The position numbers and the translations under genes are program-made. Below are positions 7,277-46,087 of a stretch of DNA of 64,000 bases, piece by piece. Each line of letters begins with the position of its first letter. Position 1 is the first letter of the stretch. Below the pieces are notes generated by a model. The model made no database searches and was not told where the DNA came from. It was given only the letters and a program-made list of their open reading frames with translations. Origin of the DNA: Amphiscolops sp. MND2022 (Eukaryota); assembly GCA_964187785.1 (NCBI GenBank), contig OZ076421.1, forward strand, positions 58,032,001-58,096,000, given 5' to 3'.

Positions 7277-8108
7277 AGGGGAAAAACAACAGTCTCTGTA
7301 AGAGTCGGACATTTTTCCTTAAAAGGAAAACGTGCCGTCTAAAAACATATGCAAATATGGACGTCATGAATAAAACGTAAAAGTGTGCAAAACACTGTAT
7401 AGAATACAAAACAATTCTCATTGAAAGATTGCCCAATAATTCATTGTGTTCTTGATTGTATGCTCGATAATAGTTTTATAAAAATATCTTTTGCTCGATG
7501 TATTCAGCAGAACAAAGGACAACATAGTTTTTACAAGGCCCTCGAAAGAAGTTTTCAGATGTTCATTTGAAGATTGTTCATACCTGCAAGCTGTTTGGTA
7601 CTCACTCTAGTCGGAAGAGGAATGTTTTTAATACAGCTTTGTTCACACTATTTGCAGTTTTTTTTAACCTATTTTGAAGATTGCCAATAATTTCGCTTCT
7701 GCAAAACTCTTGTTGTATGCAACTCTTATCAGATGTTGAAGAGATTTGGCGGCATTTTTCAGCCTTGCGTTGGTTTTCACGTTTCACAATGTGCCTGTTC
7801 TGCTTATAAATGCAGCTGAGACATTGTCGTTTTCATCGCCATTTTTGATGCAGAATAACTTCAGTCACGTTATAAACTGCGAGCTAGCGTTATCTTGAGC
7901 GTGATATTTGAAAAGCAGTCATAACCGTTGAGAAACGAAATTCTGAAAAACAAAAGTTCCTCGTTTCATGTCGATTTTCATTAGTGAAAATTGCGTTGGA
8001 ATCCTAGATGTACCACCGGAAGCTAACTGAATTTTCTGGGGTTATGCGAAAAATTTACCCTTCACACAGGACTGCCGGAGTTTGAAAGTTCAAACGGCCT
8101 TAAACTCT

Positions 8109-8621
8109 GTCAAGGACTGCAGGGGTCAAACAGTAGGGGTCAACGTTGTCAAGGACTGCAGGGGTCAAACAGTAGGGGTCAACGTTGTCAAGGAATGCAG
8201 GGGTCAAACAGTAGGGGTCAACGTTGTCAAGGACTGCAGGGGTCAAACAGTAGGGGTCAACGTTGTCAAGGACTGCCGGGGTCAAACAGTAGGGGTCAAC
8301 GTTGTCAAGGACTGCCGGGGTCAAACAGTAGGGGTCAACGTTGTCAAGGACTGCAGGGGTCAAACAGTAGGGGTCAACGTTGTCAAGGACTGCAGGGGTC
8401 AAACAGTAGGGGTCAACGTTGTCAAGGACTGCCGGGGTCAAACAGTAGGGGTCAACGTTGTCAAGGACTGCAGGGGTCAAACAGTAGGGGTCAACGTTGT
8501 CAAGGACTGCCGGGGTCAAACAGTAGGGGTCAACGTTGTCAAGGACTGCAGGGGTCAAACAGTAGGGGTCAACGTTGTCAAGGACTGCAGGGGTCAAACA
8601 GTAGGGGTCAACGTTGTCAAG
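8109..8621. repeat. 39-bp minisatellite, 13 copies
   Basis: Unit GTCAAGGACTGC(A/C)GGGGTCAAACAGTAGGGGTCAACGTT in near-perfect head-to-tail copies with no spacers. Confidence 0.97.
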
Positions 8622-10200
8622 AACTATGTATTTACTGTAGTGCATAAACTGAAAAAAAACTCTTCCTGAATTGCTGAGAAAACGAAAAAAAAACGAGGAA
8701 AGCAAAATTTCAAGATTGATATCCGGAGAAAGTCTTTTTCGTCGAAGTCAAAGTCAAAACAATTAGTCAAAGTCAAGATTATTTGTTGAAAAGAATGTGA
8801 ATTGAACAAAAATTTTGGATTTTAGTGGAGAATCCCAGTAACAGGGGCGTCGAACAGTATTCACACTTAAAGCAGACTGTATTTCATCAAAGTTAACGTG
8901 TGAAGCAGTTTGCACTAGTTGGCAGATTTTCGAGGAACCCAAATGTCTTTTCAGAACACTTTTTGAACAAATAGTTAAGCAATCAGGTTTCATACCAGCA
9001 TTGAAGGTATTCTTCAGCCCAAAGTATCATTCAAACTTTTTATAGTCAACAAAAATTATTTCCTCCGCTCTGCTACGACAACATTCACCCGAACATCGAG
9101 GAAATCAGAAACTTGATGTTTTTTCTCAGCAAAGAATTCAAGATACACAGCTTTCGTGATCTTCAGTTCACGTACCGGTAGTCAACGAAATGCACTAGCA
9201 CGTGTTTGTAAGATTAGAAAGAATTGATGCGTTTTTGTACGTAGCTAGTTTTCAAGAAAAGTTCTCATGCTTCAAACAGATACTGTCATCTCCACACTCC
9301 TTTGCCTGAGCTTAACCTTTGAAATAGTAGCTCATACGTCACGAAGATCTTGAAATTTGATATCAACTCTAACCCTCTCACCCCATCATTTATCGTACCC
9401 TAACACATAGGATACGAAAAAGCAAAAGATATTGCTCTATCATCAGTGAGAAATCATAATAAGAAAGTAACCAACTATTCTGAAGTAACGCAAACATATC
9501 AACTAAACAATCGCAGAAGCAATGCAATAAAAGATCTCAAATCGGGGTTTGTTTGTAAACACTCTTCCCAGTCACCTCCAAAGGTCAGCATTGCAATACC
9601 CCCAATAAGTTCGGTGCATTAGGGTACATATCCCCGCAAGCAAGTTCCCGGGCTTGCGACTTGCATTAATAACCAATCACAGTGAGTTATTATGATGAAT
9701 ACAGTTTTACACTTTTCTCATATTACACCAAGTGATAATTGGTTACGCTACATGACTAAAATTCACTAATTGACAGCTTTACACTATTTTCCGTAGCAAA
9801 AATTTATACTAATTGACTGCATCATGCACTTATGCAGTCCTACGGACTTTGACTTTTTTCCACTACACATTTTGACTGAATTACGCCGCCTTACTAATTA
9901 CGTGGTGTAAAATAGTCAAATAGTGTAGCACTATAATTACGTGGTGCAAATTAGTAAAATAGTGTAGCTCAGTAATGAACATGACTATTTTACGCGTTTT
10001 GTTAATCATTGGTTTAACTATATTAAAGATGTTTTTATAGACCTTGTTGTATAAATTGCAATGCATTACTTTCACTTCAGTATTGCAGATATTTTCTCCA
10101 AAATAAGTAGTTTTAACCCCGGGATCAACGGTGGTTTTCGCGGTACCGGAGAACGTTCCCGGTCAATTAGATTTTTGATGAGTGTCTTCAAGGTGTTCTG

Positions 10201-10879: not shown

Positions 10880-11235
10880 TGTCATGACTTCATCATGAAA
10901 GGATTACAACATTTCGATACAGACAGAGTCCAGCCAATCAGAAATCTGGACCAGTCAGAAGACGAATAGAGAACAAGTTGCAGCTGATGATAAAGAACCT
11001 GATATAATTGATTACACTTTAACTTGAGTAACTGTACGATAAAGATTGTTCTAGCTCTCTACAACTTTAACAAATCTTTCTGATAAATAATTTGTACTTT
11101 CTGAGTTAAGGAAAGGTGACCTAGAAAGAAATCTGAAGTCAATAACAATCCAAAAGTCTTTATAAAAGGATCCAAATACAATTCCTCTCATTCTTCTGAA
11201 AATGATAAGTTACCGCTCGGACATCACTGATGACA
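10880..11235 (+). repeat. Element 1 5' LTR
   Basis: TGTCA...TGACA; colinear with 24322-24677, about 22 substitutions by manual count (~94% identity). Confidence 0.95.
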
Positions 11236-11323: not shown

Positions 11324-12633
11324 TGTCTCCAAATTACATACAATCTTGAAAACAACTCCTCTACTCTCTGGACCAAAATCTATTCGTCACAAACGCAGTT
11401 GCACTTTTAAACGGGTTTTTGTACTGAAACATGGCCGCCATCCCAACTTACAGCCTTTCAATGGCACAGTAAAAGAAAGCTTAAACGAATTTTTGCGACA
11501 ACTCGAAAGTTGCATTCAAGTTGCTGGTGTACCTGATGCGGATCGACACAGATACCTTCATCTTCATTTAAAAGGAGGTGCGCTCACCAACAAGAAGCAG
11601 CCATTCGTGAAAATTATGATCAGGCAGTAGCAGCTCTACGTACCAGATACCAGAATGATCAACGTATCCAACTACAAAAAATACTGTTCAGTGCAAGAAA
11701 AATGAAACCGTCAGAAGAAAGTGACTTGACTTTCTTACCGAATTGCAGAGACTGGCACTTGAAGCCTACCCAAATGTTGCAGCTACAGCAGCATCAGGTG
11801 GTAGACCTGCAATATTAGCGGAATACCGTGCTCAAGAACGGAGCAGACGAGTACGAGAAGCCTTCATTAGTGGAATGCTAATAAAACTCAAGCGATTTCT
11901 TCTCACTCAATCAGATGATACTCCAATAGAAGACCTATGTGCCAAAGCGTCCAGCAGAATGATAGTAGATCGCCTATACCCCGAAAATGACGACACTGCA
12001 TTCAATGAGGTCAGTATATTCTCAACGAAACAACTTCTCACTGGTATCCAGGAGCTATCGAAAGCTCAAGACACTTTAAAAGAAGAAACAGGCAAACTAT
12101 CCACTGAACTGAAAGAATTGATCAAAACTCTTCAACCAACAATCAACCAACTTGCAACACCCCAAGGTTCGTCCAACTCGAATTATAACAATAATAACAA
12201 AAACCGACAAAATGGAAACAAGAATTTTGGCCCTCGAGGAAATAACCAGCAGTTCTGGCGCAACAAGCGACCCAACTGGCAAAATAATATTCAACAAAAT
12301 TGGCGCCCCCCGAATCAAAATTGGCAGAATCGCAACCCTAATTGGCAACCGAGAAACCCAAACTCGCAACGACCACGATTCAACAACTATGCTCAATCTG
12401 GACAAAAACACTGCAACATATGCAATAAATTTGGCCACATTCCATCTCAGTGTTGGTTTCGTCAGCAGAACTGTAACCCACCAATGTTGCCGTACACACA
12501 ACACTCTGCGGCTTAATACTCAGCCCCTCAACCTATGCTTCAAGCTACCCAGATGGTTCCGGCAACTACATTCACTCCATCATGGCCGGCCCAATATGAC
12601 TTCAACCAACAAGCCCAGAATCTAAAAAACTAG
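11324..12633 (+). pseudogene. gag: Gag with N/Q-rich region and zinc knuckle, frameshifted
   Basis: LQPFNG...EFLRQLESCIQVAG...LHLHLKGGAL, then CNICNKFGHIPSQC. Internal TAA at 12514-12516; natural end TAG at 12631-12633. Confidence 0.85.
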
Positions 12634-15600
12634 GTAACCCACACATTTCCCATATTTCTCCGTCTTTATCTTCTAATATTCCTAACTCTTCACCTTTTAT
12701 AAACGTACTCTCTTCAAAGCCTCGAACATCACTTTTTTCTACTTCACTACAATTTTCTTTTCCAGTTAAAGCCTTAATTGACACTGGTGCTTTTTCCAGT
12801 GCCATGCCATATTCTACCTTTCAAAAGCTTCAACGTACCTGTCCTAAAGCTATTTCCAACTATAACCCACAACAGAGCACAGTAAAAGTTGCTAATGGTG
12901 ACTCTGTACCTACCTATGGAACGTTTAAAGCTTCTTTCAAAATTGCGGATGAATCTTTAACTGAAACCTTCATACTCATGCACGCAATGAACCAAACCAT
13001 CCTAGGTTTACTGTTTTTGAGAAAAATGACATTTCGATACACCCCAAAATGCGCACCCTGAAACTACCCAATATGACCTTACATCTGACAGAACGAATCC
13101 ATAAAAATGGAAAAATTAGTTCTTTAACTACGAAGAAAAATCTCTTCTTAAACTCTGTTCAGTATTACCCAATAAATCCAAACTCGTCCGAAATTATCAC
13201 CTGTTCACTATCTGCTGAATCGTTCCCTGTAGGAATAGTAGCGATTGTAGAACCCAATCTACGTTTTGAAAAACAAACTGGACTTTGCGTCACAAGCGCA
13301 ATAGTCAAACTCAATGAGCAAAAACAAGTTGCACTTGGGATCCTCAACCTTTTACCTCATAAAGTAACTGTTTCAAAAAATGCGCCTGTTGCAAAAGTTA
13401 CTATTTTGACTGCTAAGCAAGCCGAATATCTACATCCGGTAACGCCAGAGTTACTTTCTGACCACTTAACAAAGGGCATTAATGGTCTCATTGCAGACAA
13501 CAAAACCAAAGTATACGCATCATCAGATGAGTTTTGGTTTCCGACGCCCGAAAATTGTGCCAATCCAGAAAACTTAATTGGAATTCAAAAAAGAAGTTAT
13601 GGTGAAATTGTGGCGCTAAAAAACTGTGAAAACTTTGAACCGCAACAAAACACGGAAGACCGAATAAATTCCTAGCACAATTCCCATGGGAAAATTCTGT
13701 TTTCACCACTGAACAAATCAAAATAGTCGAAGAACTTCTTTTAAAGTACCACAAAATGTTTGCACGACATCGTCTAGATATTGGAGTAATTGAGGAATTT
13801 AAAGTAAAACTAACTCCTGAAAATGATAAACCCAAGTATACGCAAGGTCCACCGACCCCAATCCACTACCGAGACGAAATTCTAGTGGAATTAGCTCTTT
13901 TGCAGTACCGGGGAGTCATCACCACATTAACATACTCCGAGTATTCTAGCCCCATTTTTGCAGTCCGTAAACCTTCGGGGAAACTGCGAATTTTGGTAGA
14001 TCTCCGACGTATAAACCATCTTATTAAACATGATTATGATAATCATAACTTTCCAATTGCCACTTCAGCAGACGTTAGCACACACCTTGCAGGGAAGAAA
14101 TTCTTTGCCAAATTAGACTGTAGCCAAGCCTATCATGTTTTACAAATGGCCGATCCATTGTCTGTGCAACTTCTTGCCTTTAATTTTCTCTCAAGGACTT
14201 TTGCGTATTCACGCTTAGCGCAAGGACTAAGCTGCTCAGTCAGTGCCTTTAGCTCTTTTATGCGTAAATACCTTTACCCATGTATTGTGGCAGAGCAATG
14301 CTTTCAATATGTGGACGATTTAGGCACAGCAGCTAAAACGTTTGAAGAATTCGTCACTAAAATAGAAGCTATTTTCAAATGTGTAGAGAAAACAGGCCTC
14401 AGATTCACACCCGGCAAATGTGAATTTGGAATAAAGGAAATGACTTTCCTTGGTACCACAATTTCTAGTGAAGGAATGTCTCCCAACAAAACCAAAGTAT
14501 CTGAATTTTTGTCAACTTTGAAACCATCAAAAACAGTGAAACAAATTCGCAGATTTATTCGATTTTTCCAATATTTAAGCTCTTTTATTCCAAAACTAGG
14601 TGAAAATCTGTTACCATTCTACCAGCTCTTTCGGAAAGAATCTGATATAGTGTTAACCCCAGAACATCACAAAGGCATTGAAACATTACGCAAAGATCTC
14701 GAACAGGCATGTAAAATCTCTCTGAAATTACCGAAAGCGAACGCGCAATACGTCATTTTGACTGACGCTAGTTTTTATGCAGCCGGATACTTCCTACTCA
14801 TCGAGGACTATTCCACTGATCAAACTGGTAAGACTCATAAAAGCTATGTACCAGTCTCATTTGGTTCAAAAATCTTCACCCCGACATCCTTGAAATTATC
14901 CATCTATGCAAAGGAATTCCTCGCAGTACATTTTGCATTTGATACTTTTGCGCACATTTTATGGGGAAGTTCGAAACCTGTACTGGTCTTGACTGACAAT
15001 AAAAGCCTGACACGCTTTTTTCAAGCGAAAACTATACCGTCTAGCCTTTGGACGTGTGTAGACCATGTTCAGAACTTTAATTTTGTCTTAGGACATCTCC
15101 CTGGAAAAGCTAACGCTGCCGCTGACTACCTTTCTAGAATACACATCCAGCCACATACCAAACTAGAACTTCAATCCAATTCTAAAATCCCAGTTGCAGA
15201 TTTCCATTTGCAATAGGGCATGCAAGTTCCTGACAATTCTGTCAACTCATTCAGTTTTGATTGTGCACTTTACACCCTTTCGAATGATGTTTATACTTCT
15301 TTCCCCGAAATAAACGCACTCCATGCTCCAAACCCTTTGGATGACTTGGACGTAACTAACAAATCAAACCCTCTAAATTTATACGCCGAACAACAGAAAG
15401 ATACCAACATTAAATTGGTTCTGCATTGGTTAGAGAAGGGTCCTCCTTCTCCCACCCCTTATATGAATACTGAACTCAAAAAATTCATCAAGCATTTTGG
15501 TAGACTGGAAAACCATCATGGTGTCCAATACCGCAAGTTTTTTGATGATACAGGTCGGATCTTCATACGTCAGTATGTGGTTCCACAACACTTGCGTGAG

Positions 15601-16913
15601 GAAATTCTCTATCGAATTCACAACAGCAAATATGCAAGCCACCCAGGCATTGCCAAAACAGCCGAAAGGTTTTGCAAACGGTTTTATTTTCCAGGTTTTG
15701 TTGAATTTTTAGCAAACTAGATAAAAAATTGCAGGTCTTGCCTACAGATAAAACATGTTAACACCAAACTCTGAAACCACCACTTTTGTCGCTAGCCACA
15801 GATATATATTACACCGGCGACATGCTTCAAGTGGATGTGGTTGGTAAACTCCCAAATTCCGCGGGCTACACATATATTTTAACAGCCAAAGACACTTTTA
15901 GTAAATACCTTTTTGCGACTCCTCTTCGCAATACCAGCGCATCGAATGTTGCGAAGCATCTTTTTCACATTTTTATGCGATCTTCGTACATACCGAAAGT
16001 TGTCCTTTCAGATATGGGAACAGCCTTCACTTCCCGCGTGATGACTTAATTAAGCCGCCTTTTGGAAATTAAACTGGAATACGCCACTGTTAAACACCCA
16101 CAGACCGTTGTGTCCGTCGAGCGCTCTCATGCGTCTCTAAAACAATATCTTGGCATATATGAGAACAAAATCAAACGCGATTGGCACTTGTATGTGGATT
16201 TAGCCGTCTTTGTACACAAAACTGCATATCATTCATCAATTGGCTGTAAGCCCACGTTTTTGTTTCATGGCAGACAACTGCATTCACAACTTGATTTACG
16301 TTTTGACAATAAACTCTTACAAACCCTTGAAACGCGCTATGAGTTTACAAGCACCCTTCAGGACAAAATGTATGAAGTGTTTTCTTTGGCACGTGATGCT
16401 ACTATCACTGCCTACAATAAATACCGACATTTTTACGATCGAAAGGCGTCTGCCGCTCCACTCAAAAAACACGCCTTTTGTCTTCTCCTTAACCCGAAAT
16501 TATCAAACGTCAATGATCATATGGGAAAATTGTTACCCAAATGGCTTCCTCTCTACAGGGTTAAAACCGTTTTAACGAATTCGAACTACATTATCCGTAA
16601 GGTAGGAACGAATTACACCCAGTGTGTACATCGTATTCGACTTCGTCCCATCACACCCCAATATACATTAGACGATCTTGATACCATCTCTGAGAGTAAT
16701 TTTGTCCCTGATCCATCAACGCGACACGTCTCAGAGCCTTCGCGTTTTGATCAAGCTCTTCCAGACCTTTTAACCGATCGCACCGTTTCTAAGTTGGAGA
16801 CACACCTGCTGTCGTATTTCACTATGTCCCTAGTCGCGTGCCACCGGCGCCTCCTCCGGCCCCACCGGCACTACCGGCACCTCAGGCTCTCTTGGTACCC
16901 CCTCCGGGTCTAA
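12631..16913 (+). pseudogene. pol: Pol polyprotein (PR-RT-RNase H-IN) with several stops and frameshifts
   Basis: ALIDTGA (PR); LVDLRRIN, LDCSQAYH and QYVDD (RT); TDASFYAAG, AKEFLAV and TDNKSL (RNase H); IHNSKYASHPG...CRSC, LQVDVVG, SDMGTAF and VERSH (IN). Confidence 0.95.
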
Positions 16914-18671
16914 CGCAGCCTATACACACCCTACCTCCGCCTGAAGTCCTCCCCGACCGCGACTTCACAATTGCACACCACTCTGTTGATCTTCCTCCCA
17001 TTTCCTATCAAGCTCAATTTGATAGTTCGACCGTACCTTTACAAGATCAACATTATACTTCATTTTTTTCTTCCTCACCTCACGAAGCGCTCTCTTCTTC
17101 TGCTAACCTCCCTCACTCTTTATTTTTCACTTCTCCAGCTACTAGCTTTGATTCACAAGATGCCTTTGTGACGACACACGTGACCCCTGCTGAAACAACT
17201 GCTACCAGAATTCTCATCTAACTTGGTACCAATGGCTCAATCGACACCTGTCACACCTTCTCCACCTACTCACTCCTCGTCAGGAACACGCTCCAAGATT
17301 TACTCGTCACAGGAAGGTTCTTCCCCATTTTTTGGATTTTCTGATTCAATTATAAACCGAGCTCAAAAAATTCGATCGCCACCTCGGCGTCCCCCACTTA
17401 CACCAATACCTACATTTGATTTTAATACTACCCCCATTTACGTCAGCCACCCTGGTAGTCAATTGTACTTTATAAACCCCTCTCCGTCACGCATTCCCCG
17501 ACCAAAGACTCCGGTCTTGGACACAACCGACATAGACGCCTTTATGCGTAACCTCCCGGTTCCCGATCCTCCGATTTTTATTACCTGTTTATCGACTAAT
17601 ACCCCTTCTACGGTCCCCATCACAACCACTTCTTCTTCCCCACGTCGCGATAGATACACGATTGCGACCCCGTCCTGCTCGGACTTCCTTCTATAACTCT
17701 AAACCATGGAAATAAAGAATTTTTCCATTTTTTTCATACCTATTTTTGACTGTATTTCTGTTATACTATCCGTTTTTCCTATTTTAAAGGTTCCAAGCTT
17801 TCACCATACACCCTCCAATGGATTCTAGCCGTAGTATGGTCACTTTTTACACCCCATACAAGACCAATATGCTCACTTTTATATGCCTTTTTCGGACAAA
17901 AACTGGACTTTTTGTCTGAAATCTTTTGATTTTTGTCCTTTTTTGGTCCAAAAACCAAATTTTCTTATGTCCTATCACTTTGGTTGGTCAACACTCACTC
18001 ACCCTCGTGGGTTACCCAACGATGCCTAGGTACCGCTTCACTAGTGTAGAGTGCATCGGAATGGTTATGTTGACACTGTCTTTCCCGAAAAATTGACCCA
18101 TTTTTGACCCTTCGAAAACTTGATTTTCAAACACATGTAAAATTTCGAATTTCGGGAATTTCAGCATGAAAATAGTGGCTAACGACCTTATTTATCCCAA
18201 ACCCTCAATTTAGGCGAAAAAGAGAAAAATCGAAAAAGAAAATTGAAAAAAAGTTTTTCTGGGGGATTTTCGGGCCATGTATGCGATTTTGTCATTTTTG
18301 TCTGATTTTCTGTTTTTAACTCCATTTTTTCTACCCCAAATGGTCTTGAACACCACCCGTAGGCCCCCCAGTACCTTTTGACGCAATTTTATTCCCTTAC
18401 TATGCATCTGAGTATGACTTTACAGACTCAAATGCCATAAAAACTCCGATTTTTTGCCATTTTTTGCCGTTTTTATAGAAGCAATTTTATTTTCTCACCA
18501 TCATGCTTGTTCGGAACTACTCCCACAGGCACCAGCTTCCTCGTCCTGAGCCCAGGGTTCCTCTGGAGGTCCACGAACCCGCACTGACGTTTGCAACCTA
18601 TCAATTTTGCGAAATTTTTCTACTTGTCCCCGAAATACATTCCGACTATCTATGTAATTCTTATCAATTAC

Positions 18672-19972
18672 TCATTCTGGCTCTGGAAAATCAGGCAGAG
18701 GCTCGCAGTGAAACTGTGTGCGGAACCTCTTTCCGCCTTGGATTGTTTGACATAACAAGCTAGCCCGCTCCCCTTGCTCTCTGCCATACTTATAGCGAAT
18801 CCACCCGCCCATGTCCCAGTACTGCCAGTAAACTATGATGTCTGTCTGTAGCACCCAGGCTGTAGCTAATATCTAAATAGTCCACATGTCAGTCTTGTGC
18901 CTTGCATCTATCTACAATTTTGTCAATATGATTAATAGTTCATACCGCGGCTTCAGATATGCTCGCCGTGACTTTCGCACACTCATTAGCCAAAAAGTAG
19001 TTAGGAGCAGTGACCAGACAATACTCCTTAAACTCATTGGTCTGCATGACTTCTGTAGCTGCCACCCTGATACCTTTGCATTTTCGTCCTGGTGCACTGT
19101 CCTTACGATCTAAGTGCATATTTCATACATTTGTATATTTTTTTCTCAATTTTATATGTGCATGTATTTTTCTTTACTTGCTTCGTCTGCACATACCTGA
19201 TTTTCGACCACAGAGTAAATGATAGATGCTTGAAAAGAAGCATTCCAACCAACTTCAGCCAACTTCCCCAGTGACTCCTATTTGCCAGGATTAGTTAGGT
19301 CCACGAACACATTGGACACACGCGAAGATGATAAGGCCTCCCACATGCACGTATATCCAAACTTATCGCATAACTCGATACGTCTGGCTAAGGACAAGGG
19401 CAGATGCTTCTGCACCTTCTTCCCCTCCTCACTGTCAAAGTAGCATGTTTGACAGTTTCTGAGGAACCTAGGAAGAAAAAATTATACTTTTCCTTTTTTC
19501 TCTCTTTCTCGCCTTCTTTTAAAAAAACACAAAAAAAACAAAAACATCAATAATTTTTTTAATATATCAAAGATTGGTGTACTCACTCTCCTGCTAAAGC
19601 TTTCAGCCCACCGAGAGCAGCTGGGTATGCCACTCTAGCCTCTGACAGGGCATCTATGTGCATCTGCACTCCACGATAGTGCTTTCTTTTTCCCACGGTC
19701 TCGTTCTTCTTCCAGTCCTTGATATGTACCTTGTACAATATGTTGTCGACTTGTTCTGGTGTAGGAGCGGGAATATACTCATTACGCCGCCCTTTGTACA
19801 TCAAAATGCCCCTCTCCACCTTGAGACTTCGGCACAGTTTCTTGAAATTCTCGCGTTTCTGAGATGTTTTCAGCACACTGCTATCCAACACAGCTTCATT
19901 TAGATACTTGACGATTGCTTCATGCAAAAATCGATCTATGTTGAAATCGAAAACAATTGCAAATGTGGTCAC
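18672..19972 (-). pseudogene. Antisense four-exon gene: integrase-type H2C2 zinc-binding domain fused to an OTU-like cysteine protease
   Basis: Exons ~19972-19587, 19467-19197, 19109-18946 and 18872-18672, separated by GT-AG introns with consistent phases. Motifs ILYKVH...KHYRG...FLRNCQTC, GWN(C)FFSSIYHLLCG, ILATAWVLQTDIIVY and FHCEPL. One TAG (19280-19278) and one 1-nt deletion (~19241). Confidence 0.75.
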
Positions 19973-20967
19973 TACTACCTACTTTTTCATAATCTTTTTT
20001 CACGTTCCTTTTCTTCTGCCAACTCTTCAAGTCACTATGGCGCGCCGACGCATGATTTAGACAAAATCAACAATAAAACTCCTTTGACTTTGGACAGCCA
20101 CAGATATTTTTTTCCTTTTTTCTCTTTTTGTACATTTTACACAAGACTAGCATTCATTGTACACAAGTCTCACTTTTACAAAATTATCACTATAGTAAAA
20201 CATCTTTTTCTTTCAATTTTAGCCTTGACTGCTTTCTTACACTAGTTTTCTACTCTGCATTTTTTTCTTTCTTTCTCCTCAGTTTTTTTCTCTTTTTTTC
20301 TTTTTTTTTCTTCTTTCTATTTGGTTTCTTTGCGCCCCTCTTTAGTCAATTTTCATCTTCAGCAATTTTTTGTCTTTTTGGATCTGTGTAGTTTCGTTTT
20401 CTTTTTCGTTGCTGTACCATTTTTCTTTTTCTTTCATATATCTTTTTAGCTTTTCGTCCATTTGTTCTTTTCATTTTTTTCTTTGCCGTTTTTTTCTTAC
20501 TTTTTTTCTTTTTGGAACAAACGCCACAACACGTACAAATGAGCGATGGTCGCCAGAACCACCCCCACACAACTCAACCCCCACTTTACGGAGCTGGAGT
20601 AAATGAAGCTCTATGGAGCTGGAGTAAATGATGCTGGAGTTTTATGAAGACTAAGTAGTAGAACAAACTATTCTCTAGCTCGAAAAATTGACAATTGACT
20701 ACTTTTGTCCACACCAATATGATATACGAACTTCTTTTGTTTTTTCTATTCACATATGCCACACGCCACATCCGGTTTAAATACCATGGTACAAAAATCA
20801 CATTCCTTATTTACATGATCACGCCCGATGGTATTCGCCACTACAATAACGAACTCCTTCTCTTTGAATTATGCAAACAAACACGCCACTTTGTGCTTCT
20901 TTTCCTTCTAAAAAAGAATAAATACCAAATTTCAATTCATTCATTCCATTCAACATCACAATAACCT

Positions 20968-23160
20968 TTGACATTCAACGACTTGCTTTCGTTCAACACC
21001 GAATTGTTAAAAGTGACTTGGATTTGTCTGATTCTTTTTCTCCCATTTTTGGGCAACTCACAATCTCCCATTTCCGCCTTTGATGACTCTGGTGGTCCTC
21101 TCAAGAAAGGGATCATCTTCCACGAAAACAAGAAAGTCTTAGTTGCTGAAAAATTCATCAACGTTGAGTTTTTGCTTCCATTTCCCAAGTTCGCAGTATA
21201 CATCAAATCTGATCTTGAGCACATCTTGTCTGTCTTGGCAACCATGTGGGACATGCCGACCTTTAATTGTTACTTGAATTTCACTAATGTTTCTTTGGAA
21301 GGATTCCACGTCAATTGGCTCCTCACGGAAGTCCAAAATGAAACACAACTGACAGAAAACGCCTTGAATACTCTACAATTGGAAATTGCCACATTCTTGC
21401 ATCCTCCTTTGCCTCCTTCCCAACATGATCGCCCTCGTCGTGCCATTCCTCTGGCAGCTGTCGCTGTTGGAGCGATTGGACTCTTCAGCACTGGAATTGC
21501 AATGGGAAGTTGACTGTTGATTGCTTGGAATTTTTGGCACTTGCCCATCACAGAAAAATGCCAATGCGATCAACCGCATGTTTCACATGACCGAGAACTT
21601 GGCCGCTAATTTACAACATCTGCAATCGGCTACTAATGAAAAATTTCTTATTGTGGGACAGGAGTTGAAGGCCATTCGAGACCTACAGGCTCAGATGATT
21701 GAAGTGCAGAATGCTAACTGGCATACGATCTCTCAACAACTTGAGACCTTTCGTCACGACATCCACGAGATGCGCAATTGTGATCAGTTGCTCTTCACTA
21801 GACAGCAAATCAATCTTAATTTTGATACCATCGCCTCGTTGCTCTCGCTCTTCTACTCTAACGTCGAGTCCTACCAATCAGCTCTTTTTGCATATCGTTT
21901 GAATCTCCTTAACAGTATTCCAGCTCTCCTTGATAAGTATGTTCCGATCTCTTTATTGGATCGTTCATCTTTGGAACAAGTCCTTAATGTGGTTCAGGAC
22001 ATCCAAAACAAGGCCACGGATCGCCTGACTCTGGCCATTCCCTATCAAGAGACCCTTTCTTCATACGAAGCTCGTCTTCTCCAGGATTTAGTAGCACTTC
22101 CTGATGGTTTCCTGATCAAGATGTCCATTCCTCTCGCCTCACGTCAAACAGTTCTCAACACATGCGAGGCTATTCTGATTCCCATGCCTCAACTTGATGA
22201 CTCTGATGCCATGAGTTGGTCCCTCGAAGCTGACTTCTTAGCAGTTTTCGAGAATGGCCGTGAAACAGCCGGTGTTACCCGTCACGATCTTGAGTCCTGT
22301 ATTGGGTCATCCCGATACAGCATCTGTCAACAGGGTCTAGCAACGGAAGGCCTGGGTTCTTCTTGCCTCTCTTTGCTCTTCTTCGGCAACCAGGTCCAGG
22401 CCATGAAGATTTGCGACCTCATCCCTTGCAAACTTCCCGTTGTGGAACGCGCTGTCAATTTGCGCTTTGGGATCTGGCTGATCCTCTCAGCCATTGCCGA
22501 TTTTGAACTCCGAGAGTCTATGGCCAACGACAAGTCTCATATGTCCGCCAAAGTGTACCCTGGTTGCAGAATATGTATATATACTTTACCGTGTGGACAC
22601 CAACTTCGAGGACCGAATATCTTCATTCGTTCAGATCTCCAATCTTGTTCGAAGGTCCCTTCCATCGAAATTCATGTTGACGTTCCAGTCCCCTTGTTGG
22701 ACGTCCTTAGTGCTCGTCCGTCTCTCAATGAACTACTATCATCAATACGAAGTCTTTAGCCAATCTGGACTTTCTTCGATCCTTGAAGCATGAAATGAAA
22801 TACATCTCTCCCACGGCTCTCGAAACACCTGACGCTCTTCGAACATTGGCTCAACCCATTGTCCTGAAGATGACAGACTTGAAAAATGCGCTTAAATGCG
22901 AGTTCAGTCATACCCCTACATTTAAAACAACTCTAATATTGGGACTCGCAAGCTTTTTAATTTCGATGCTACTACATCTACTCTTTATGTGTATATTTCA
23001 TCGCTATCACAATTTGCACAAGTTTATGCCTTTTAAACATACTTTGAAAACTAAGGACGAAAAGATAAAAGTTCCTCTCCATCCCGTCCTTTCGGTCCCT
23101 TCTGACCATGTTGAAGCGATACGGGCAGACCCGAAATTTCGCTGGCGTAATAAATGTTGA
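20968..23160 (+). pseudogene. env: Env-like class I fusion glycoprotein (paramyxovirus F-like architecture), ~730 aa, two frameshifts
   Basis: Hydrophobic signal region WICLILFLPFLGNS; furin site RPRR followed by AIPLAAVAVGAIGLFSTGIAMG; heptad region with ATNE; Cys-rich CIGSSRYSIC; TM LILGLASFLISMLLHLLFMCIF; sequons NFT, NVS and NET. Confidence 0.85.
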
Positions 23161-24321: not shown

Positions 24322-24677
24322 TGTCAAGACTTCATCATGAAAGATTTACAAAATTTCGTTACAGACAGAGTCCAGCCAATCAGAAATCTGGGCCAATCAG
24401 AAGACGAATAGAGAACAAGTTGCAGCTGATGATAAAGAACCTGATATAATTGATTACACTTTAACTTGAGTAACTGTACGATAAAGATTGTTCTAGCTCT
24501 CTATAACTTTAACAAAACATTCTGATAAATAATATGTATTTTCTGAGTTAAGGAAAGATGACCCAGCAAGAAATCTGAAGTTAATACCAATCCAAAAGTC
24601 TTTATAAAATGATCCAAATACAATTTTTCTAATTCTTCTGAAAATGATAAGTTACCGCTCGGACATCACTAATGACA
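24322..24677 (+). repeat. Element 1 3' LTR
   Basis: Direct repeat of 10880-11235. Confidence 0.95.
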
Positions 24678-30096: not shown

Positions 30097-30739
30097 GTTA
30101 AACTTTCAGACATATTGAGTCAATTCAAAACCGCGCAAAAAAGCACTTTTGGTTATTTTTAAAGTTCCAAACGTCGGGGAAAAGTTTTGGAAAAAAAACT
30201 GCTATAAATGATGAGATTAATTTGACTGCACATTGTTATAGAAGCAACCCAATTTTCCATTGAAGCATTTCAGATTGAAAACCTTACCTTCTTGGAAACT
30301 TGCGTGAAAAAGAAGTATTTCAATAGATCCAATATGGATCAAAATTTCCAAGTAACATTTTCGAGAACAATTTCACTCATGCAGACTCGACTTTTCGGGC
30401 TGCTCGCAATCTCATTGGATAAAAATGGAACTAGCACGATTGTTGTAGAAAAGTTCTACAGGCATGAAAATTAGGACGCATTGTATTCCTTTTCCTCCCG
30501 CGCGTCGCGGCGGCGGCATTTGTATTATTTAGTCACAAAGCGTAGCACAGTATTTGCATAAAGCACGTGACGAATACCGAGCACAAAAGTTGAACAATAT
30601 ATGAATACAATCACAGCATACTCACTGAGGACGACTTAAAATTAATAAAAGGAACATACTAACGATCGGCAACGTATACTATTTTTCTTTCAATCTCCTA
30701 ACCGCCATACAATGATACTCCCCTCATGACTCCAGATAT

Positions 30740-31479
30740 CTACAAGCTAAATAGATACTTCCGTGTGTAGGTCCTTTGTGACATCCGCGGTACACAATCC
30801 ACTCGCGTGACCGCTCGAAGTATTCGTAGATCGTGACTCCAAGCTCGCGAGCGATGACGCGTGTGTCGGTCTGTGAGAGGAAGTATGTGTCCCCAGGACC
30901 GTCGGGGGGAAGTCCGCACCCAGTGCTGAATGGCCACCGCCGCTTTGATACTCCCGGTCAAAATAACGCTTAAAGTAGTGCAGACACAATTATGAGGACT
31001 CGGGCAATTAACTAATTTCGGTCTAAATTTTGAAGCATCACTTTCCTCGTGATTGCTCGTTTTAAAATGCTTCATCCATTTAATGCCGATCTTTCTGCAT
31101 AAAAATTTTCTCTTCTTTTTGGAACAATGAACCATAGGACCACTCCGTCGAACGGGGATACGGGAGTCAGCGCAAAAGGAACAATTAGCTACAATGTCTG
31201 CACATGCAAGTCTCAAATAAGGAACGATAAAAATATCACGGGCACGAAGGTAAAGATCATTTGCAGGGGGTGGCTCTCTCTTTCATGTAAACTCCGTAAG
31301 TGATCCTCGATCTCATCAGAGAGTAAAATGCGGCGGCACCCACAAAATAATCGCCCGTCAATAAATTGGCACTGCTTAGCTTTCCGTCTGAGGGATCTTC
31401 GGTCATTCAGGGAAAATGTAGGCGGGAAAGTTTTTGAAGTAAAATACAAAACGAACGCCAAAAAGAGTTCTTTATCCAT
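30740..31479 (-). pseudogene. Antisense LTR-encoded protein with an integrase H2C2 zinc-binding domain and no catalytic core
   Basis: ATG at 31479. MDKELF...SLRRKAKQCQFIDGRLF...LRSLHERESHP, then across a 1-nt frameshift (~31265) ANDLYLRARDIFIVPYLRLACADIVANCSFC. Confidence 0.7.
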
Positions 31480-31716
31480 GATGCAAGTTTTCACGTGAAA
31501 TAGATATCAACTGTTTGTTGTAAGGTGAATGGAATAAACTGACTGCGTACGCACGTGAGTTGCGCACTATGCTAGCGCTCGCTACGGGAAGGCCGCTACA
31601 ACGCTGCGGAAGGGATTATTACGTCATGAATACAGGGAACCTGCTCCGCTAGCCGCAGCAACTTGTGACGTCACAGCAAATGGAAAATAGGACATCAGAT
31701 TTTAGTATTTTTGGGA

Positions 31717-32175
31717 CCTGACCACTTTTTTCCTCGCTAGCCCTTTTACCTTAAAAATGGTCCGATTTAAATGAAATTTGACACGAATATAATAGAAGGC
31801 ATGTGGAAACTACATACAAAATTTCAGCTCGCTACGACTACCGCAACCCTAGTTTTTTCAACTCGGAAGTGGGCTATGTCAAAAAGGTTCTCTGCAACCC
31901 GACCACTTTTTTCCGCGCTAGCCCTCTTACCTGAAAACTTGTCCGATTTGGATGAAAATTTGCACAATTATACTACTGATCAATGAATACCTACTCGTAA
32001 AATTTGATATTCGTACGCTCACTTTTTTCCTTGCTAGCCCTTTGGCCCTAAAAATCGTCAGATTCGAATGAAAATTGGCACACTTGAATTAAAGATAATC
32101 GACCACCTACATGCAAAAATCCAGATTGCTAAAACCACTCCGAACCCCCGTTTTCGAACCCGGAAGTGGGTGAAT
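31717..32175. repeat. Three degenerate ~130-190-bp tandem units inside the LTR
   Basis: Recurring CACTTTTTTCC..GCTAGCCC...AAAA..GTC(C/A)GATT...ATGAAA.TT.G.CAC at about 31720, 31903 and 32021; mirrored in the 3' LTR. Confidence 0.6.
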
Positions 32176-33979
32176 TGACATTAACCGGAAGTTCTAGAAA
32201 TAACCCTTAAACCAAGTTCCAGGGCCCATCATTATCGCCCAAACGGAATGAAAACGCCTCTCAACTAAGTATGGGTCATTTCGAAATAGTTTTTTGGTCG
32301 TTTGACCCTAAATAAGCTCAAACTATCGAAAATTCGGAAACCCTAAAACCCAAAACCAAAAAAATCATTCAAACTTGTTTAATTCAACAAGGGGGGGGGC
32401 ATCATGAAGCTTATTTTTACCACCCTATTAGTCGTTGGGGCATTGGAAATGTCCGGGGAGATCCAAATTGATCCTGGAAACGGGAAACGGTATATTCGAG
32501 ATTCGAGAAAATAACCCTAACCCTAAATTTGGAAATGACCCATACGGCCGTTGCAAATAGTGGTGTTGTATATCGATCGAAACGGCGTCGTGTCCCGAGG
32601 CCTATTAAAGTGCCCATTTTTCAAATTTCAACCAATTTGATTCATTTTTCCTTTTCTAGGGTTTTTCAAGAGAAAATCGGGTTCTACATATATTGAGATT
32701 AGTGATCGGAATTTTTCAAACTTCGAATGACCTAAAATAGCATGATGCTTATATCAGCGCGACTACGGAATTCTCCAAGCAGCGTTACGCAAAACCTCAT
32801 TAATTATGCAGATCGCATTACGCTCCGCCAGCTGCAGATAAAGTATTAGCAAAGCAAGCCCCTTTACAGTGCGGCGAACGCTCTTTCAAGTGGAACACTT
32901 TTGTTTATTGCAATTATGTAGCCTCGAGGAACAATTTATCTATTGCTTCTGTATTGAGCATATTTAATGACGTTGAGCTATTGAACAACTGCGGGAAGCT
33001 GACAGCTTTATTGATATAATAGACTGCGAGGCGCCGATGCGACTCTGTCAGCTGCATTAATGAGGCCGCTTGTGTTCTTTACTGTTCCACTTGAAAACGC
33101 AAGCGTTAAGATGAAAAATAGATTAAATACGATGACAAACAAAATATCTAATAAAGCCCGGCAGTTCATGCTGATCCAGATAAGCGAAAACCGATAAATA
33201 ATAAAAATTTTGCAGAGAAGCAATAAAAAAACCGACGCCCTCGGACGCAATAAAATAAAAAAAAACGAAACCGGCTCGTCGGAAACGAAAGAGGAGAGAG
33301 AGAGAGACAAACCGTGTAGAGAATAGTTGTGTGCTCAGAGAAGAGAAAATAGTGAAAAAAGAAAAACATTGAGAGGCCGGGCCCCTCATACAGAAAATAC
33401 CACATACATTTTTGCTTGATTGTCTAATTAGTGAGCTGAGAAACACGTTGAACCCAACCCCATTCAATTAACGTTGTTTGTATTGATTACCCGGTGCCGC
33501 TCGTACGCACCTGTATCTATTTGGAAGCATTTTGTGTTTGTGTATTCGAGTAGTTACTTTCCATATTTCTCACCCGTATTTATTTGAAGCACTATTGTTA
33601 TTCGTGGGTACACTGTGTTTAAATATAAAGAAACCCCGTTTATTTGAAGTCTTGTTTGCTGAATATTCCCGCTATCCAGGGAAAAGTAGTGTTTCTTTCG
33701 CTTTCAAAAAGAATAATTGATTGTTGTGTGGCGTTCTTTTGCCAAACAAGAGCCGAGGCCCTGATAGAGACAGGTCGAACTCAGAAAAAAGGGAAAAACT
33801 GATTGAACGTTGAATAACTGGAACCTTTTCTGCCCGTTGCTGCCTGCTACCTTTCGGTATAAAAAAATCTTGTGGAACACCTAGCTCTCGATTCGCCTCG
33901 TCGAGAGTGTCGCGACTCAAATAGGTGTTGATTGTCGGTCGCAGTCATAAAAAAAGCCGGGCCGACAACTTTTCTACAG

Positions 33980-33997
33980 TGGCGCTCCTGGGTGGGC
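33980..33997 (+). promoter_or_regulatory. Primer-binding site, tRNA-Asn-like
   Basis: TGGCGCTCCTGGGTGGGC one base after the LTR; close to the recalled Asn-type PBS TGGCGTCCCTGGGTGGGC. The tRNA identity is inference. Confidence 0.75.
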
Positions 33998-34428
33998 CAC
34001 CAACGCAGCAGCAACCAGTTATTAGCGTCATTATTTCTCAACTTTCCGAGATAGTTTGTGAGCTTGTTATACTTGTTTTGTTAGTTACTTTTCTGATAGC
34101 GATTACGATTGCTTTTACCGCCTGGAACAGAGTTAGAGATTCCATTGAATTCCCGTTTAGATCATTCAAGTCTACCCTAGTTTACCCGAGTTTTGGATTT
34201 ATCCATTGAAAGTGGATCCCGAAGACGTCTATTTTGAATTTGCATTTCCTTGCTTGGGAATTGTTTATTGCCCGTTAACGATTGGATCAGCCATCATTCT
34301 TTTGTGGTTTGCTTACTTGAGATTTGTTATCTGGCTCATTCTTGAACTGCCTTACGACCGGGAGACAATCGCTTTCGTTATCGACGTTATTGGTCCAGAG
34401 TTAGCAGACAGCTGAGCAGAGCAACGAG

Positions 34429-35768
34429 ATGTCACTCGATCAACGCACCCCGAAGTCGGTGTGGGACGATGAGTCTGACCACGAGCAGTCCGGAAGTCAA
34501 AGTCATGGCCTCCTGCAAGAAGCATCCTCGAGACAAAATCAATCTGGCAGCAATGCGAACAGCCCGTCGAAGGATGCTGAGCTGGAGCAACTACGCAGTC
34601 AAGTGAAGGACCTTTCCGTTGCTATGGAAGGTTTGCAGAAAGGCAAGCGGAGGCTAAATTTCGCTACTAGATCGTCCGGTGTGAGTCCAAGTCAGCGCCC
34701 ACCGACTGCAGAACGGGAACCCCAAGTGCTGCTGGCCTTGCATCCTGAACGATTCCCCTCCAAGGACTACCCCAGCTGGCGAATGTGGCAGCAGCACTTC
34801 CGCAGCGTGTGTCGCGCCAACGGTTGGAGTGATGCGAAAAGCCTGCAGGTCTTAGCAGCTATTTTGAGTGGCTGGGCTACTGATGAATTCCACTCTGCAC
34901 CTGAGAGATTCCAGAATGATCTCGCTGAGATGTTGCAATTTCTGAAAGGCCGCTTGTCACCTTATCGGAATGAACGCATCTCACGGGGCGAGTTCAAAAA
35001 CTTGTATCAAGGGGCCGAGGAGACATTGAGCGAATTCGCCCGCAAGATTCGGAATGTGGGGAATCGCGCTTATCCCGAGGTGGCAGTGAACCAAAGAGAT
35101 CAGTTTCTACGCGAGCAGTTCATTGAAGGCTTGTACGACATGGACGTACAAGTAGAGTTGTTGAAGGAACCCGAACAGGACGTTTGGAGACCTTGACACG
35201 TGCCCAACAGCTTGACTCAATCCGCAGAACCGCGCGAAACAACCCAAGGCGCCGAACGCAAGGTCACGTGCGGTTCGTCGCAGTAGACGAAACCCAAGAA
35301 GAGAGCTGCCACCGACTGCCAGAGAAAAGCAATGCCGTTGCTAGATCCCCGACACCCCCTGGTGAGAAGAGCCTGGCCTCTGAGGTTCCCATTGGTGAGA
35401 CCTTGGCGGCAATTCAGACGACGCTTGAGTTGCAGCATAAGGCAACCACTTACAACCAGTCGCTGATGGAGAAAACCAACACGAGGCTGGACAGGCTGAC
35501 CGAGCACACTGTGAATAACAACGAAAAACTGACTTCAGCGATCGAAACTCTAACCGATGCTATCAAGACGCTGACAACCCAGTCGACGAAGCAACTATAC
35601 GATCCAAACAAAGATCGCGGGAGATACGGATGGAAAGGAAATGACGTGTCCCCAGCGCGAGACCGCCCTCCACTTAATATGGCGACAGTCGATTGTTATC
35701 AATGCCACCAAAAGGGACATTTTGCTCGGGACTGTCCCAATCAGCAGCAGAGTGGTCATTTAAACTAG
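34429..35768 (+). pseudogene. gag: Gag with CCHC knuckle; one frameshift near 35185
   Basis: WRMWQQHFRSVCRANGW...REQFIEGL, then CYQCHQKGHFARDC. Confidence 0.9.
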
Positions 35769-38700
35769 TCAGGGCTGAGCAAAGCTCGGGGTTGCCAACC
35801 TCAGCCCAGCAAAAATCAGATTGCAATCCAACCCCTGCGTCAACCAGCACCCAGCCCCAATGCAGCGATTTCCCCAATGCCACCCCGACAATCCTGTCAA
35901 AGCAGAGCTGCAGACCAATTGTGTTCGAAAAAGCTGCTGCTCCTGAACGCGAAGAAATCGAGCAGCGGTTGTGCACCCAGATTGAGGTGAAAATTCCTCA
36001 AGGGCCCAGTTTATTGGTGCCACTGATGGTCGAAAACGAAAAGAAATGGTCCCTCATTGACACAGGTGCCAGCTCGAACTTGTTGTGCAAGAAATTACAA
36101 GAACAAGTAGGGGGCACCCTTGAGCCCTACGGTGGAGTCGTCGTCGATCCAAAAGGCGAACCCTTACCCATCATTGGAGTCACCCGAGTACGACTGAATG
36201 TGGCAGGTCTGGTGACAACCGAGAAGTTCTTAGTCATGGATGGTCTCAACCCCGATGTTATTGTTGGACTACGGTTCCTGCTGGAGAAATGCTGTCAACT
36301 AGACTGGCAGCACTGCTGTCTCTGGCTAGAGGGCGGTAAACGAAGGGCACCCATGACAGTAGCAGGCCCCCTAATGCCAAATGACCCGGACCCGATCCTG
36401 ACACTTTACGCCACGTCCAACCCAACGTCCCCGACTGTGAAATACCAACCAAACCAGCCCCAGTCAGCTTCCCCCGAGCCGGTGCTGGGCGCAACTGAAG
36501 CTGGAAATGAAAACCCATCCTGCATCGAGGGAACACCAGTTTCAGTTGGCAATCTGCCTCAAGATGCAGAAGAATTCAGAGGCGGTTTCATTAGTGAAAT
36601 AGGGTTCCGGAAGCAACGGGAGATACCCTGGGCAGATGTCAGAGACGGAAAGGTCAGATTCCGAGGCAGAGCCAAAGGCGTCGTTTCTGCGAGGCGATGG
36701 GCATCCACCGTACGGTCTGTATCACCGAAAAAGACCCAGCGACGATCCTCGATTCCTCGTTGTTTCCGATTGCCTGAGACTTTCGAGAGCTCGTCCACTG
36801 CAGACATGGAAGCCCAACAGACGCAACTCGGAGCAGACGTGGAGACAATTTTGCAATTGACTGCCCCTGATGCGGAAGAAAGTATGAGGCAGCGTCTCAG
36901 GCTTCTGATCGAAGAGTTTCGCGATGTGTTCGCGCTCATTGAATCTAACAACCCACCGCATCTACACCGGATGGCTCCCGGCAAAATTCCAGAAATGAAG
37001 GCGGAGGTTCAAGACATGCTGAAGCGGGGGATCATCAGACCCTCTAAAAGCCCTTACAGTTCGCCCATAGTGATTGTGAAGAAGAAAGATGGAGCCAACC
37101 GATTCTGCGTCGATTACAGAAAACTCAACGAGATCACGCGAAAGGATGCTTTTCCAATACCGCGGATTGAACAGACACTCGACGCTTTGGAAGGTTCCAG
37201 CTTTTTCTCCACTCTGGATTTAGCCTCAGGCTATTGGCAGGTCCTAGTGGCGACAGAAGACATCCCAAAAACAGCTTTCGTCACCCCAGATGGCGGTCTG
37301 TACGAGTATGTGAGGATGCCCTTTGGTTTGTGAAATGCTCCAGCTACATTCCAACGCCTGATGAACGAAATCTACGGCGACGCATTGTACAAATTCGTGA
37401 TAGTGTTCCTTGACGATGTTTTGGTGTACAGCAAAACAGAAGACAGTCACTTTGAACAGTTGCGGGGAAACCTTCACAAGGTTGCGAACAGCTAATCTGA
37501 AACTGAAACCCAAGAAGTGCAACCTCTTCCAGAGAAAAGTGGGCTACCTCGGGCATGTCATTGATCAAGCTGGCTCACGACCTGACCCTGGGAAATTGGA
37601 CGCACTGCGAACGTGGCCCCAGCCTAATACAGTCACTGGTGTCCGGTCGTTCCTCGGATTTTGCAGTTATTACCGCAAATTCATCAAGGGATTCGCAGAA
37701 ATCGCTAGACCCCTGCACGAACTGACGAGGAAGGTATTGAAACTCACGTGGCTGCCACATCACACCGCGGCCTTCAATGAGCTGAAAGATTGCCTTTTGA
37801 AGGAACCCACCATCAGTTTTCCTGACTTCAACCAGCCCTTTGTCATTGACACAGACGCAAGCGACAACAGCCTTGGCGCAGTGCTGTCCAATGTGGTCAA
37901 TGGAGAAGAGCGCCCCTTGGCATACATGATTAGGGTTCTCTCAAAAACAGAAACCATGTATTCCACCACAAAACGCGAAGCCTTGGCCGTAGTACAGGCA
38001 CTGAAGTGGTTCAGATCATACATCCTTGGCCTCAAAGTGATCATACGCACGGACCACGCTAGCCTCAGATGGATGCCTTTCAGAATGGTCCAGAAGCTCC
38101 AGGAGTATGATTACGCGATTGTACACAGGCCAGGAGCGAAACATGGGAACGCAGACGGACTGTCTCGTCGAGAAGACCCGAAGGAGAATTGGAAAGAAGG
38201 CGACTTTGAAGTTCTGTTGGGTCCCTGTCCCGAGCCGACGACATACGAAGAAGCCCTGGAGGAAGTTCGCGACTTCCTCAAAGTGGTCAAGGAGCTGCAG
38301 GATGCCCGAACACTCGACTCACCCCATGAGCACCCCGAAGAACCCGACAGCGGAGCATGCAGAACAATTCAGGCTTCGAGTTTCAAAGTCGACCCAGTCA
38401 TGGAATTGGACGACTGGTTCTACGATTCCGGTCGGTCGATGGTGCAATGTGTCACAGCGGACTTTCGGCTGATCACAGTTCATCAAAGAGACCCTGTTCA
38501 CGATCCCTTCCTAGAAACCCTAATCCAAGGACTGAAGCGTCAACCCATGCCTGGGGACACACTGGCTGTACGTGACATGGAATCGTCTTGCTGGTGGTTC
38601 TACATGATCACCAAGAAGTTTGCCTGGGAGAAAACCAGTTATCGAACTCTGCGGGAGTGCCTCTCCCAGCTACAGCGATTGATGGAGGAAAGTCACGTTT

Positions 38701-40933: not shown

Positions 40934-41182
40934 GAGTGGAAAACACTCCGACCTCAACTGTAGTCTGCTTGCAGGAGGCAGACGACAAAGAGGAATCACA
41001 TCCTGCGGCACGAGTGATTCACCGTGCCACGCTTTCTCCTGCGCTCCGCTGAGCACGGAAAACGAGAACTACCGAAACAGTCCTTCGCCTGCTTAGCTGA
41101 ACAACGAAGAAAGCATCGCCATCAGTTGCCTTGTTTCACGAAAAGCTTCTCCACTGCCATTAAACCTGCTACCACTCGTGCG

Positions 41183-44100: not shown

Positions 44101-44411
44101 GATGCCTCTACCTGAGTCGACAACCAATCCGTCACGCCCTGCAGCGCGGGGTGAGGTCAGTGCGCCGGAGGAACGAGAGACGAATCATCCGGCAGAAGCG
44201 ACAACAACTACAGGACGAAGCTCGTGCTGATGCGGAAGCGGTGCCCCGAATACACATGCGGGTGCGCCAAATTGCAGCGGAGAGTGAACGACCAGCGACA
44301 AGTGAGGCGACAGTGGCAGAGCTCCATGACCCAACGCACACATCGGCGAAGGTACCCCGAAGAAAGGGTGGAGAGCCGGGCGAGAAATGCAGATCAGACG
44401 AGAAGCCGTGA
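41183..44411 (+). pseudogene. env: Env-like class I fusion glycoprotein, disrupted by stops and a 1-kb duplication
   Basis: Signal peptide MQLIILCCCLSFLWHPIVS; furin site RTRR followed by VVPHLVAAATATIF; AHCQGTGRLKLC; GCQSCLVKPSC; TM VVLPAVSGVFALTLTAGCLYL. Confidence 0.85.
41531..43530. repeat. Tandem duplication of exactly 1000 bp inside env (41531-42530 / 42531-43530)
   Basis: Paired ORFs are offset by exactly 1000 nt; ACTT microhomology at 41531, 42531 and 43531; only a few substitutions between copies. Confidence 0.95.
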
Positions 44412-45724: not shown

Positions 45725-46075
45725 GTCTTCCGGGGTTTTGTTGTTATTTTTTTGTTTTTTTTTACAAAACTGTTGTCCATCAGTTTTTTTTTACCCTCAC
45801 CCTGTGGCTAAAACCACCTTGCGTGGCTCGAAACGCAGTGTGGCACGGCTTCCTGGAATAGATACCACTGTGACTGTTGATGTTCTACTATTACTATTAT
45901 TTTTTTTGAAAGCTTCTATTGTTTTGTTTTCATACGCAATTTCAACCCCAACCTCAGTCTTTGAGTCCTATGACCTGCCCCGTCCTTTCCAACTACACCC
46001 CCCCCCCCGATCTCAGCTCACCCATTTTGATAGGATGTCGATACCTCTGAAACTATCCAGGAGTATAGTTAGTCT

Positions 46076-46087
46076 GGAAGGGAGGAA
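46076..46087 (+). promoter_or_regulatory. Polypurine tract of element 2
   Basis: GGAAGGGAGGAA directly before TGTAGAAAAG. Confidence 0.85.

Follow-up and report, generated by a model that had tools for sequence, protein, structure and literature searches.

Animal LTR retrotransposons are commonly viewed as gag-pol or gag-pol-env elements with few accessory genes, and the OTU deubiquitinases of viruses counter host defences. Among mobile elements, the Ginger1 transposases combine a Gypsy-type integrase N-terminus carrying an H2C2 zinc finger with a C-terminal OTU domain and one to four GT-AG introns, and OTU domains are also found on Helitrons (PMC2836005). The gene reported here resembles Ginger1 in its zinc domain, its OTU-like domain and its GT-AG introns, but it has no DDE core, GPY/F or terminal inverted repeats and lies antisense inside LTR retrotransposons. 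By analogy, we infer that it may descend from Ginger1. The Helitron OTU is likewise carried by a mobile element, but it belongs to a rolling-circle transposon protein and does not form an antisense gene of its own in a retroelement (PMC2836005).

Antisense genes and shared accessory genes have been described in other LTR elements. The plant Retand, Grande and RIRE2 elements contain antisense aORFs between pol and the 3' LTR and thus also have a family-wide antisense accessory gene after pol, but these encode TRP28 and other domains and are described from plants only; the terms "protease," "ubiquitin" and "intron" are absent from the accessible text (PMC11963269). In the bdelloid LTR elements, extra ORF3s are common to different retroelement types, which is similar in that accessory enzymes occur in distant retroelement groups, but the enzymes are a GDSL esterase and a DEDDy exonuclease, with no OTU in the text at hand (PMC5408684). 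The env-carrying Ty3/gypsy "errantiviruses" of ancient animals are gag-pol-env LTR elements and hence the same type of carrier; OTU, antisense and accessory genes are absent from the main text, although the supplements may list such elements (PMC13524379). Nor does the available text on the Tor elements describe a gene of the antisense OTU type (PMC4402516). A literature search outside Repbase, subscription journals and supplements turned up no article describing LTR retrotransposons with an OTU gene.

OTU domains on mobile elements, antisense aORFs and accessory ORFs common to several retroelement types are thus known separately. What appears to be new is a conserved opposite-strand gene for a predicted enzyme, intron-bearing in the gypsy elements, that is common to gypsy and BEL/Pao elements and exchanged as alleles. 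Our main reading, to which we assign a probability of roughly 0.55, is that this is a five-exon antisense accessory gene for a protein with an integrase-type zinc domain and an OTU-fold domain, likely a deubiquitinase that would strip the host ubiquitin marks by which the element is silenced or destroyed.

The antisense gene and its Ty3/gypsy carriers

The window, by which we mean the whole analyzed stretch of 64,000 nucleotides from Amphiscolops sp. MND2022, contains a plus-strand element with a 5' LTR of 356 nt with TG..CA ends (10880..11235), followed by a TGG primer-binding site, and a 3' LTR (24322..24677) preceded by a polypurine tract. The LTRs are 93.8% identical to each other, and the 5-bp flanks on the 3' and 5' sides match as a target site at four of five positions. 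Gag (assigned by position), protease, RT and RNase H together with integrase are located at 11725..17221 on the plus strand, as recognized from open reading frames and from Pfam matches to aspartyl protease, RVT_1, RT_RNaseH and Integrase_H2C2, with several broken frames. The LTRs, the primer site, the purine tract and the PR-RT-RH-IN order identify the carrier as a Ty3/gypsy element. An env-like gene on the same strand (20965..23160), also with several broken frames, contains an RPRR site with a hydrophobic peptide behind it; a Pfam scan of this gene gave no match, and we take it to be F-like. The antisense motifs and introns are found on the minus strand of 18300-20400, inside this single LTR element.

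The gene model was derived from an alignment of the window copy with 15 of the 20 closest relatives that we fetched (16 copies), and consists of five exons of 353, 272, 173, 200 and 97 nt with a product of 364 aa; six of the 15 relatives are uninterrupted and have canonical splice sites. On the minus strand of the window, exon 1 (19587..19939) encodes an integrase N-terminal-like region with the zinc His codons at 19726-19724 and 19681-19679, while exon 2 (19197..19467) contains the CxxC motif (19454-19443), a linker and the predicted catalytic Cys (19242-19240). Exon 3 (18946..19109) corresponds to a helical part of the OTU-like domain, exon 4 (18676..18872) contains the LATA..L..D..VYW segment and the FHCEP motif with the predicted catalytic His (18710-18708), and exon 5 (18501..18597) encodes a short acidic tail and the stop. 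The three introns of the original prediction were recovered at the places claimed for them, namely intron 1 (19468..19586, 119 nt), intron 2 (19110..19196, 87 nt) and intron 3 (18873..18945, 73 nt). All are GT-AG, and their phases of 2, 1 and 0 join the quoted motifs consistently, as had been proposed.

Other parts of that prediction had to be revised. It counted four exons, and intron 4 (18598..18675) and exon 5 were overlooked because the donor of intron 4 is damaged in the window copy; it also began the gene at 19972, where the family start codon aligns instead to 19939. The single stop (19280-19278) and the single frameshift (near 19248) that it reported are both present, but the lesions number at least six and include a damaged start codon, an in-frame loss of 9 bases in exon 3, two small deletions in exon 4 that offset each other, and the damaged intron-4 donor. 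The window copy of the antisense gene is a dead, decayed member of its family.

The splice sites, which could have been a peculiarity of this copy, are kept across the 16 aligned copies. GT donors were observed at introns 1 to 4 in 14, 16, 15 and 14 of the 16 copies, and AG acceptors in 15, 16, 15 and 16. Splice sites also occur at corresponding places in distant families, among the matches listed. Between subfamilies, the identity is 0.57-0.77 in the exons versus 0.39-0.57 in the introns, and exon 5 is 97 nt long in 15 of the 16 copies and is present also in distant subfamilies. The introns of the gypsy gene are not chance patterns. No gypsy copy lacking the introns was recovered from the nearest subfamilies by searches for two exact junction patterns. 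Of 23 genes from both carrier types, 20 have an acceptor-like motif no more than 22 nt upstream of the ATG, as compared to 135 of 897 control windows (15%), bearing in mind that related loci are not independent; this motif suggests one extra splicing step at the 5' end.

A DNA search of the same genome with the gypsy gene gave 54 matches, and a protein query with exon 4 gave at least 150 (150 scored of 276 candidates). We fetched 56 loci with exon-4 identities of 39-100%, which makes 57 with the window. Within the stretches examined, the integrase was found beside the gene in 51 of the 57 loci, env in 47 and both in 44, and neither flank was seen in three. The position between pol and env that had been noted in the window proved to be family-wide, as the gene is antisense between integrase and env in all 44 loci with both flanks and antisense in all 54 with either. 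The RT of the carriers is 44-87% identical to that of the window, and the antisense arrangement is therefore old, given identities as low as 44%. The only inverted repeats flanking the gypsy gene have low-complexity A/T arms, and no terminal inverted repeats were found; what we see is a family-wide segment and not a single insertion with its own termini. Parts of the antisense cassette are tandemly amplified inside single elements at four loci (L041, L049, L092 and L024), with three exon 1-2 units each in L041 and L049.

Two moderately diverged pairs of gypsy genes have dN/dS values of 0.11-0.12 and one close pair has a value of 0.4; in all other pairs the synonymous sites have reached saturation or come close to it. 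The distant pairs show saturated pS values of 0.71-0.84 versus pN values of 0.19-0.37. Judged from these substitution patterns, the gypsy gene is under purifying selection with a dN/dS of about 0.1.

A BEL/Pao homologue and the domains of the gypsy protein

A genome-wide search with the Pfam OTU model pointed to BEL/Pao elements that contain an ORF of about 295 aa without introns, which has 76 matches in the genome. The gene was visible in 21 of 22 examined loci and located antisense directly after pol in all 21. The assignment of this second carrier to BEL/Pao is based on DUF1759, Peptidase_A17, DUF5641 and paired LTRs around the gene; LTR pairs of about 307 nt that are 95-98% identical enclose it in four of four regions. 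The homologue passes the Pfam OTU (PF02338) cut-off of 23.3 bits with scores of 27-28, five of seven sequences match this model, and H2C2 is matched below its cut-off (E 0.017-0.11). A structural model of the homologue (pLDDT 82) resembles OTUD3 (Z 12.1, rmsd 3.8, 128 aligned), and its residues 2-107 resemble the integrase N-termini of foamy virus (Z 7.4) and Ty3 (Z 7.3). The structural matches include the OTU domains of nairovirus L, arterivirus PLP2 and tymovirus PRO, which have the fold in common with the homologue but are domains of RNA-virus polyproteins without an integrase zinc domain.

For the gypsy protein, the proposed match to OTU and integrase zinc profiles holds by way of this homologue, through hhalign, Pfam OTU and the model, but not in a direct Pfam scan. 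Single gypsy exons matched neither OTU nor Integrase_H2C2, the OTU-like domain being split over three exons, and the gypsy loci were not among the matches listed in the genome-wide PF02338 search. Three exon profiles searched against PDB sequences retrieved no OTU and only weak, unrelated rows, and an exon-1 search of a protein database for longer proteins retrieved none. The exon-4 profile gave 32 matches among 1.84 billion representatives, of which 16 were examined; these were exon-sized fragments and a single unrelated repeat protein, and none represented a full-length spliced product.

The comparison with the BEL/Pao homologue is more informative. The matches of the gypsy exon profiles follow one another along it in exon order, with E-values of 4.8e-8, 3.3e-5 and 1.5e-4 (exon-1 probability 94.8; exon-4 E 1.5e-4), and the whole gypsy gene, with X at the junctions, aligns to it over 250 columns from the first residue with an hhalign probability of 98.3 and an E-value of 1.5e-14. 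In this register, both His residues, the CxxC motif and the loop Cys coincide. Reciprocal HMM scores reach 25 bits as compared to a shuffle maximum below 7, which the real sequences exceed in 10 of 13 and 10 of 10 cases. With the gypsy profile, an unrelated OTU of the same genome obtains 6.5 bits and the best shuffle 1.7. The OTU fold itself was observed for the model of the BEL/Pao homologue, and the OTU domain of the gypsy protein is assigned by homology.

The H..H..CxxC zinc ligands are conserved in the gypsy family, with the His pair invariant in 15 of 15 sequences and the two Cys of CxxC present in 17 of 17 (C5) and 16 of 17 (C8). The predicted catalytic loop Cys, at the place where the Cys-loop helix of an OTU domain would begin, is kept in 16 of 17 sequences and aligns to the Cys of GDGNC in the BEL/Pao homologue. 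The loop reads GG[E/K/A]C versus GDGNC in the homologue, and the GWNC read from the window copy was not borne out by its relatives, which have GGEC[FW]. FHCEP is invariant (18/18) and its His is the predicted catalytic residue, an assignment by motif and invariance only because the hhalign alignment does not bring FHCEP and the HVD of the homologue together. About 60 residues separate the CxxC from the Cys loop, with no DDE core. OTU ancestry of the gypsy gene is very likely, and its product is probably an active isopeptidase.

The top two folds for the exon-1 model among 48,161 chains are the foamy-virus and Ty3 integrases, with weak Z-scores of 4.7 and 4.5. A Foldseek search with this model gave nothing at E 0.001, and the foamy-virus and Ty3 integrases appear in most of the top rows. 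We also considered an origin from the carrier's own integrase, which was not supported, as the zinc domain is near neither carrier's integrase N-terminus by profile score.

More distant homologues, P0007 (37%), P0019, P0029, P0030, P0034 and P0036, suggest that the gene may extend beyond the sampled families of the Amphiscolops genome. The BEL/Pao profile has eight relatives in the protein database, and with so few the system may be confined to a narrow host group; the ESM Atlas gave no usable match to two homologues used as queries. At L064:2-4948 on the minus strand, a long ORF of more than 1600 aa, which we assume is possibly of Helitron type, contains a canonical OTU near its start and scores weakly against both profiles.

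Exchange of alleles between near-identical elements

In both superfamilies, backbones that are 95-100% identical contain gene alleles that are only about 60% identical. The gypsy pair L058 and L057 shares 96% identity through position 3698 and again from 6265 onward, while the intervening block of 2.5 kb has almost no alignable DNA; pS is 0.04 for the integrase, 0.05 for env and 0.82 for the antisense gene. One backbone family with integrase identities of 87-100% contains six types of exon 2, mostly 57-69% identical and 80% in the closest pair. A further family contains all four combinations of exon 2 with exon 4 (L099, L100, L105 and L106), which shows recombination inside the gene. The same pattern was observed in BEL/Pao, where L082 and L083 are 98-100% identical to L087 and L088 in the integrase and 63-65% in the OTU gene. 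On this pattern of identities, the gene acts like a cassette open to exchange in both superfamilies.

The trees of the gene, the integrase and env (12, 12 and 10 rows) agree at deep nodes and disagree within a family, and a quick tree places the gypsy genes apart from those of BEL/Pao. Among 24 loci, one cassette on two distant backbones was not seen, and long-lived alleles in recombining families therefore fit the data as well as import does.

Possible roles of the gene

Our best reading is that the gene encodes a Ginger-like, integrase-less OTU accessory protein, likely targeting host ubiquitin marks. It would be transcribed from its own strand as a separate, spliced mRNA, which may gain a 5' leader by splicing to the acceptor just before the ATG. 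The introns would survive reverse transcription because the packaged sense RNA never presents the splice sites of the antisense gene. The zinc domain, with no DDE core behind it, may serve as a targeting or assembly module that directs the putative deubiquitinase. The substrate would be a host factor and not the element's own integrase, since alleles of about 60% identity adjoin integrases that are 95-100% identical. The counter-defence role is proposed from the allele pattern and by analogy, and we consider its odds somewhat better than even.

An alternative hypothesis is that the protein is an active isopeptidase that serves the element's own machinery, with an N-terminus that docks on the intasome or particle and an OTU domain that shields integrase or Gag, or modulates repair where the element integrates. 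The N-terminus does appear to fold like those of the retroviral and Ty3 integrases, the gene tree tracks integrase and env at its deep nodes, and Ginger1 has OTU and integrase on one chain, for which a role in transposition or repair is suggested by its authors (PMC2836005). However, strongly different alleles sit beside near-identical integrases, and the profile scores separate the zinc domain from the integrase N-terminus of either host element, for which reasons we find a role in the element's own machinery rather unlikely. It is also conceivable that the OTU fold has been put to another use, as a protease for SUMO, NEDD8 or a similar modifier, or as a binding or regulatory protein akin to HBZ or the Retand aORFs. 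The divergent Cys loop, the missing direct Pfam match and the extra invariant W, Y and RY residues, which are lacking in the BEL/Pao homologue, would fit such a change, but Cys and His-x-Glu are kept across families that are only about 30-45% identical, as expected of a catalytic triad, and we regard another use of the fold as improbable.

The gene could also be selfish, a reduced Ginger-like gene that travels as a passenger in LTR elements and is spread by recombination while giving its carrier no benefit. Such a history would account for a Ginger-like architecture without DDE, for the presence in two superfamilies and for the exchange of blocks, but it is very unlikely for a gene that has no terminal inverted repeats, is under purifying selection and was kept through deep splits among the carriers. 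The number of genomic matches, the constant place and strand, and the conserved splice sites refute both a single nested insertion and a pattern due to chance.

Taking the counter-defence reading further, two LTR superfamilies may independently have co-opted a Ginger-derived, integrase-less deubiquitinase as a swappable antisense cassette, which would indicate a ubiquitin-based defence against retrotransposons in the host lineage; we advance this broader scenario tentatively, at somewhat less than even odds. If true, the cassette would be to a retrotransposon what an immune-evasion hotspot is to a virus. The antisense OTU gene offers a direct handle on how hosts turn ubiquitin on retroelements, since the protein of the intronless BEL/Pao gene is ready for assay and its substrates would reveal the defence. 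Its layout further illustrates how a retroelement can retain introns, and why surveys based on ORFs overlook such genes.

The window contains several other features. A second, unrelated LTR element (30520-48807), in which no copy of the antisense gypsy gene was found, has LTRs that are 97-100% identical, RT, RNase H and integrase, an env-like ORF (43317-44408), a sense ORF without Pfam match (41252-42031) and a perfect duplication spaced by 1000 nt (41531/42531). Weak matches to the profile of the BEL/Pao OTU gene, which may be due to chance, were seen inside both of its LTRs on the minus strand (31216-31506, 13.6 bits; 46386-46769, 9.7 bits). A tandem array with about 13 or more copies of a 39-nt unit is located at 8025-8700, and two minus-strand ORFs likely belong to other transposons, a zinc-finger-like ORF at 484-2133 and an integrase core (rve) ORF at 54712-55656.
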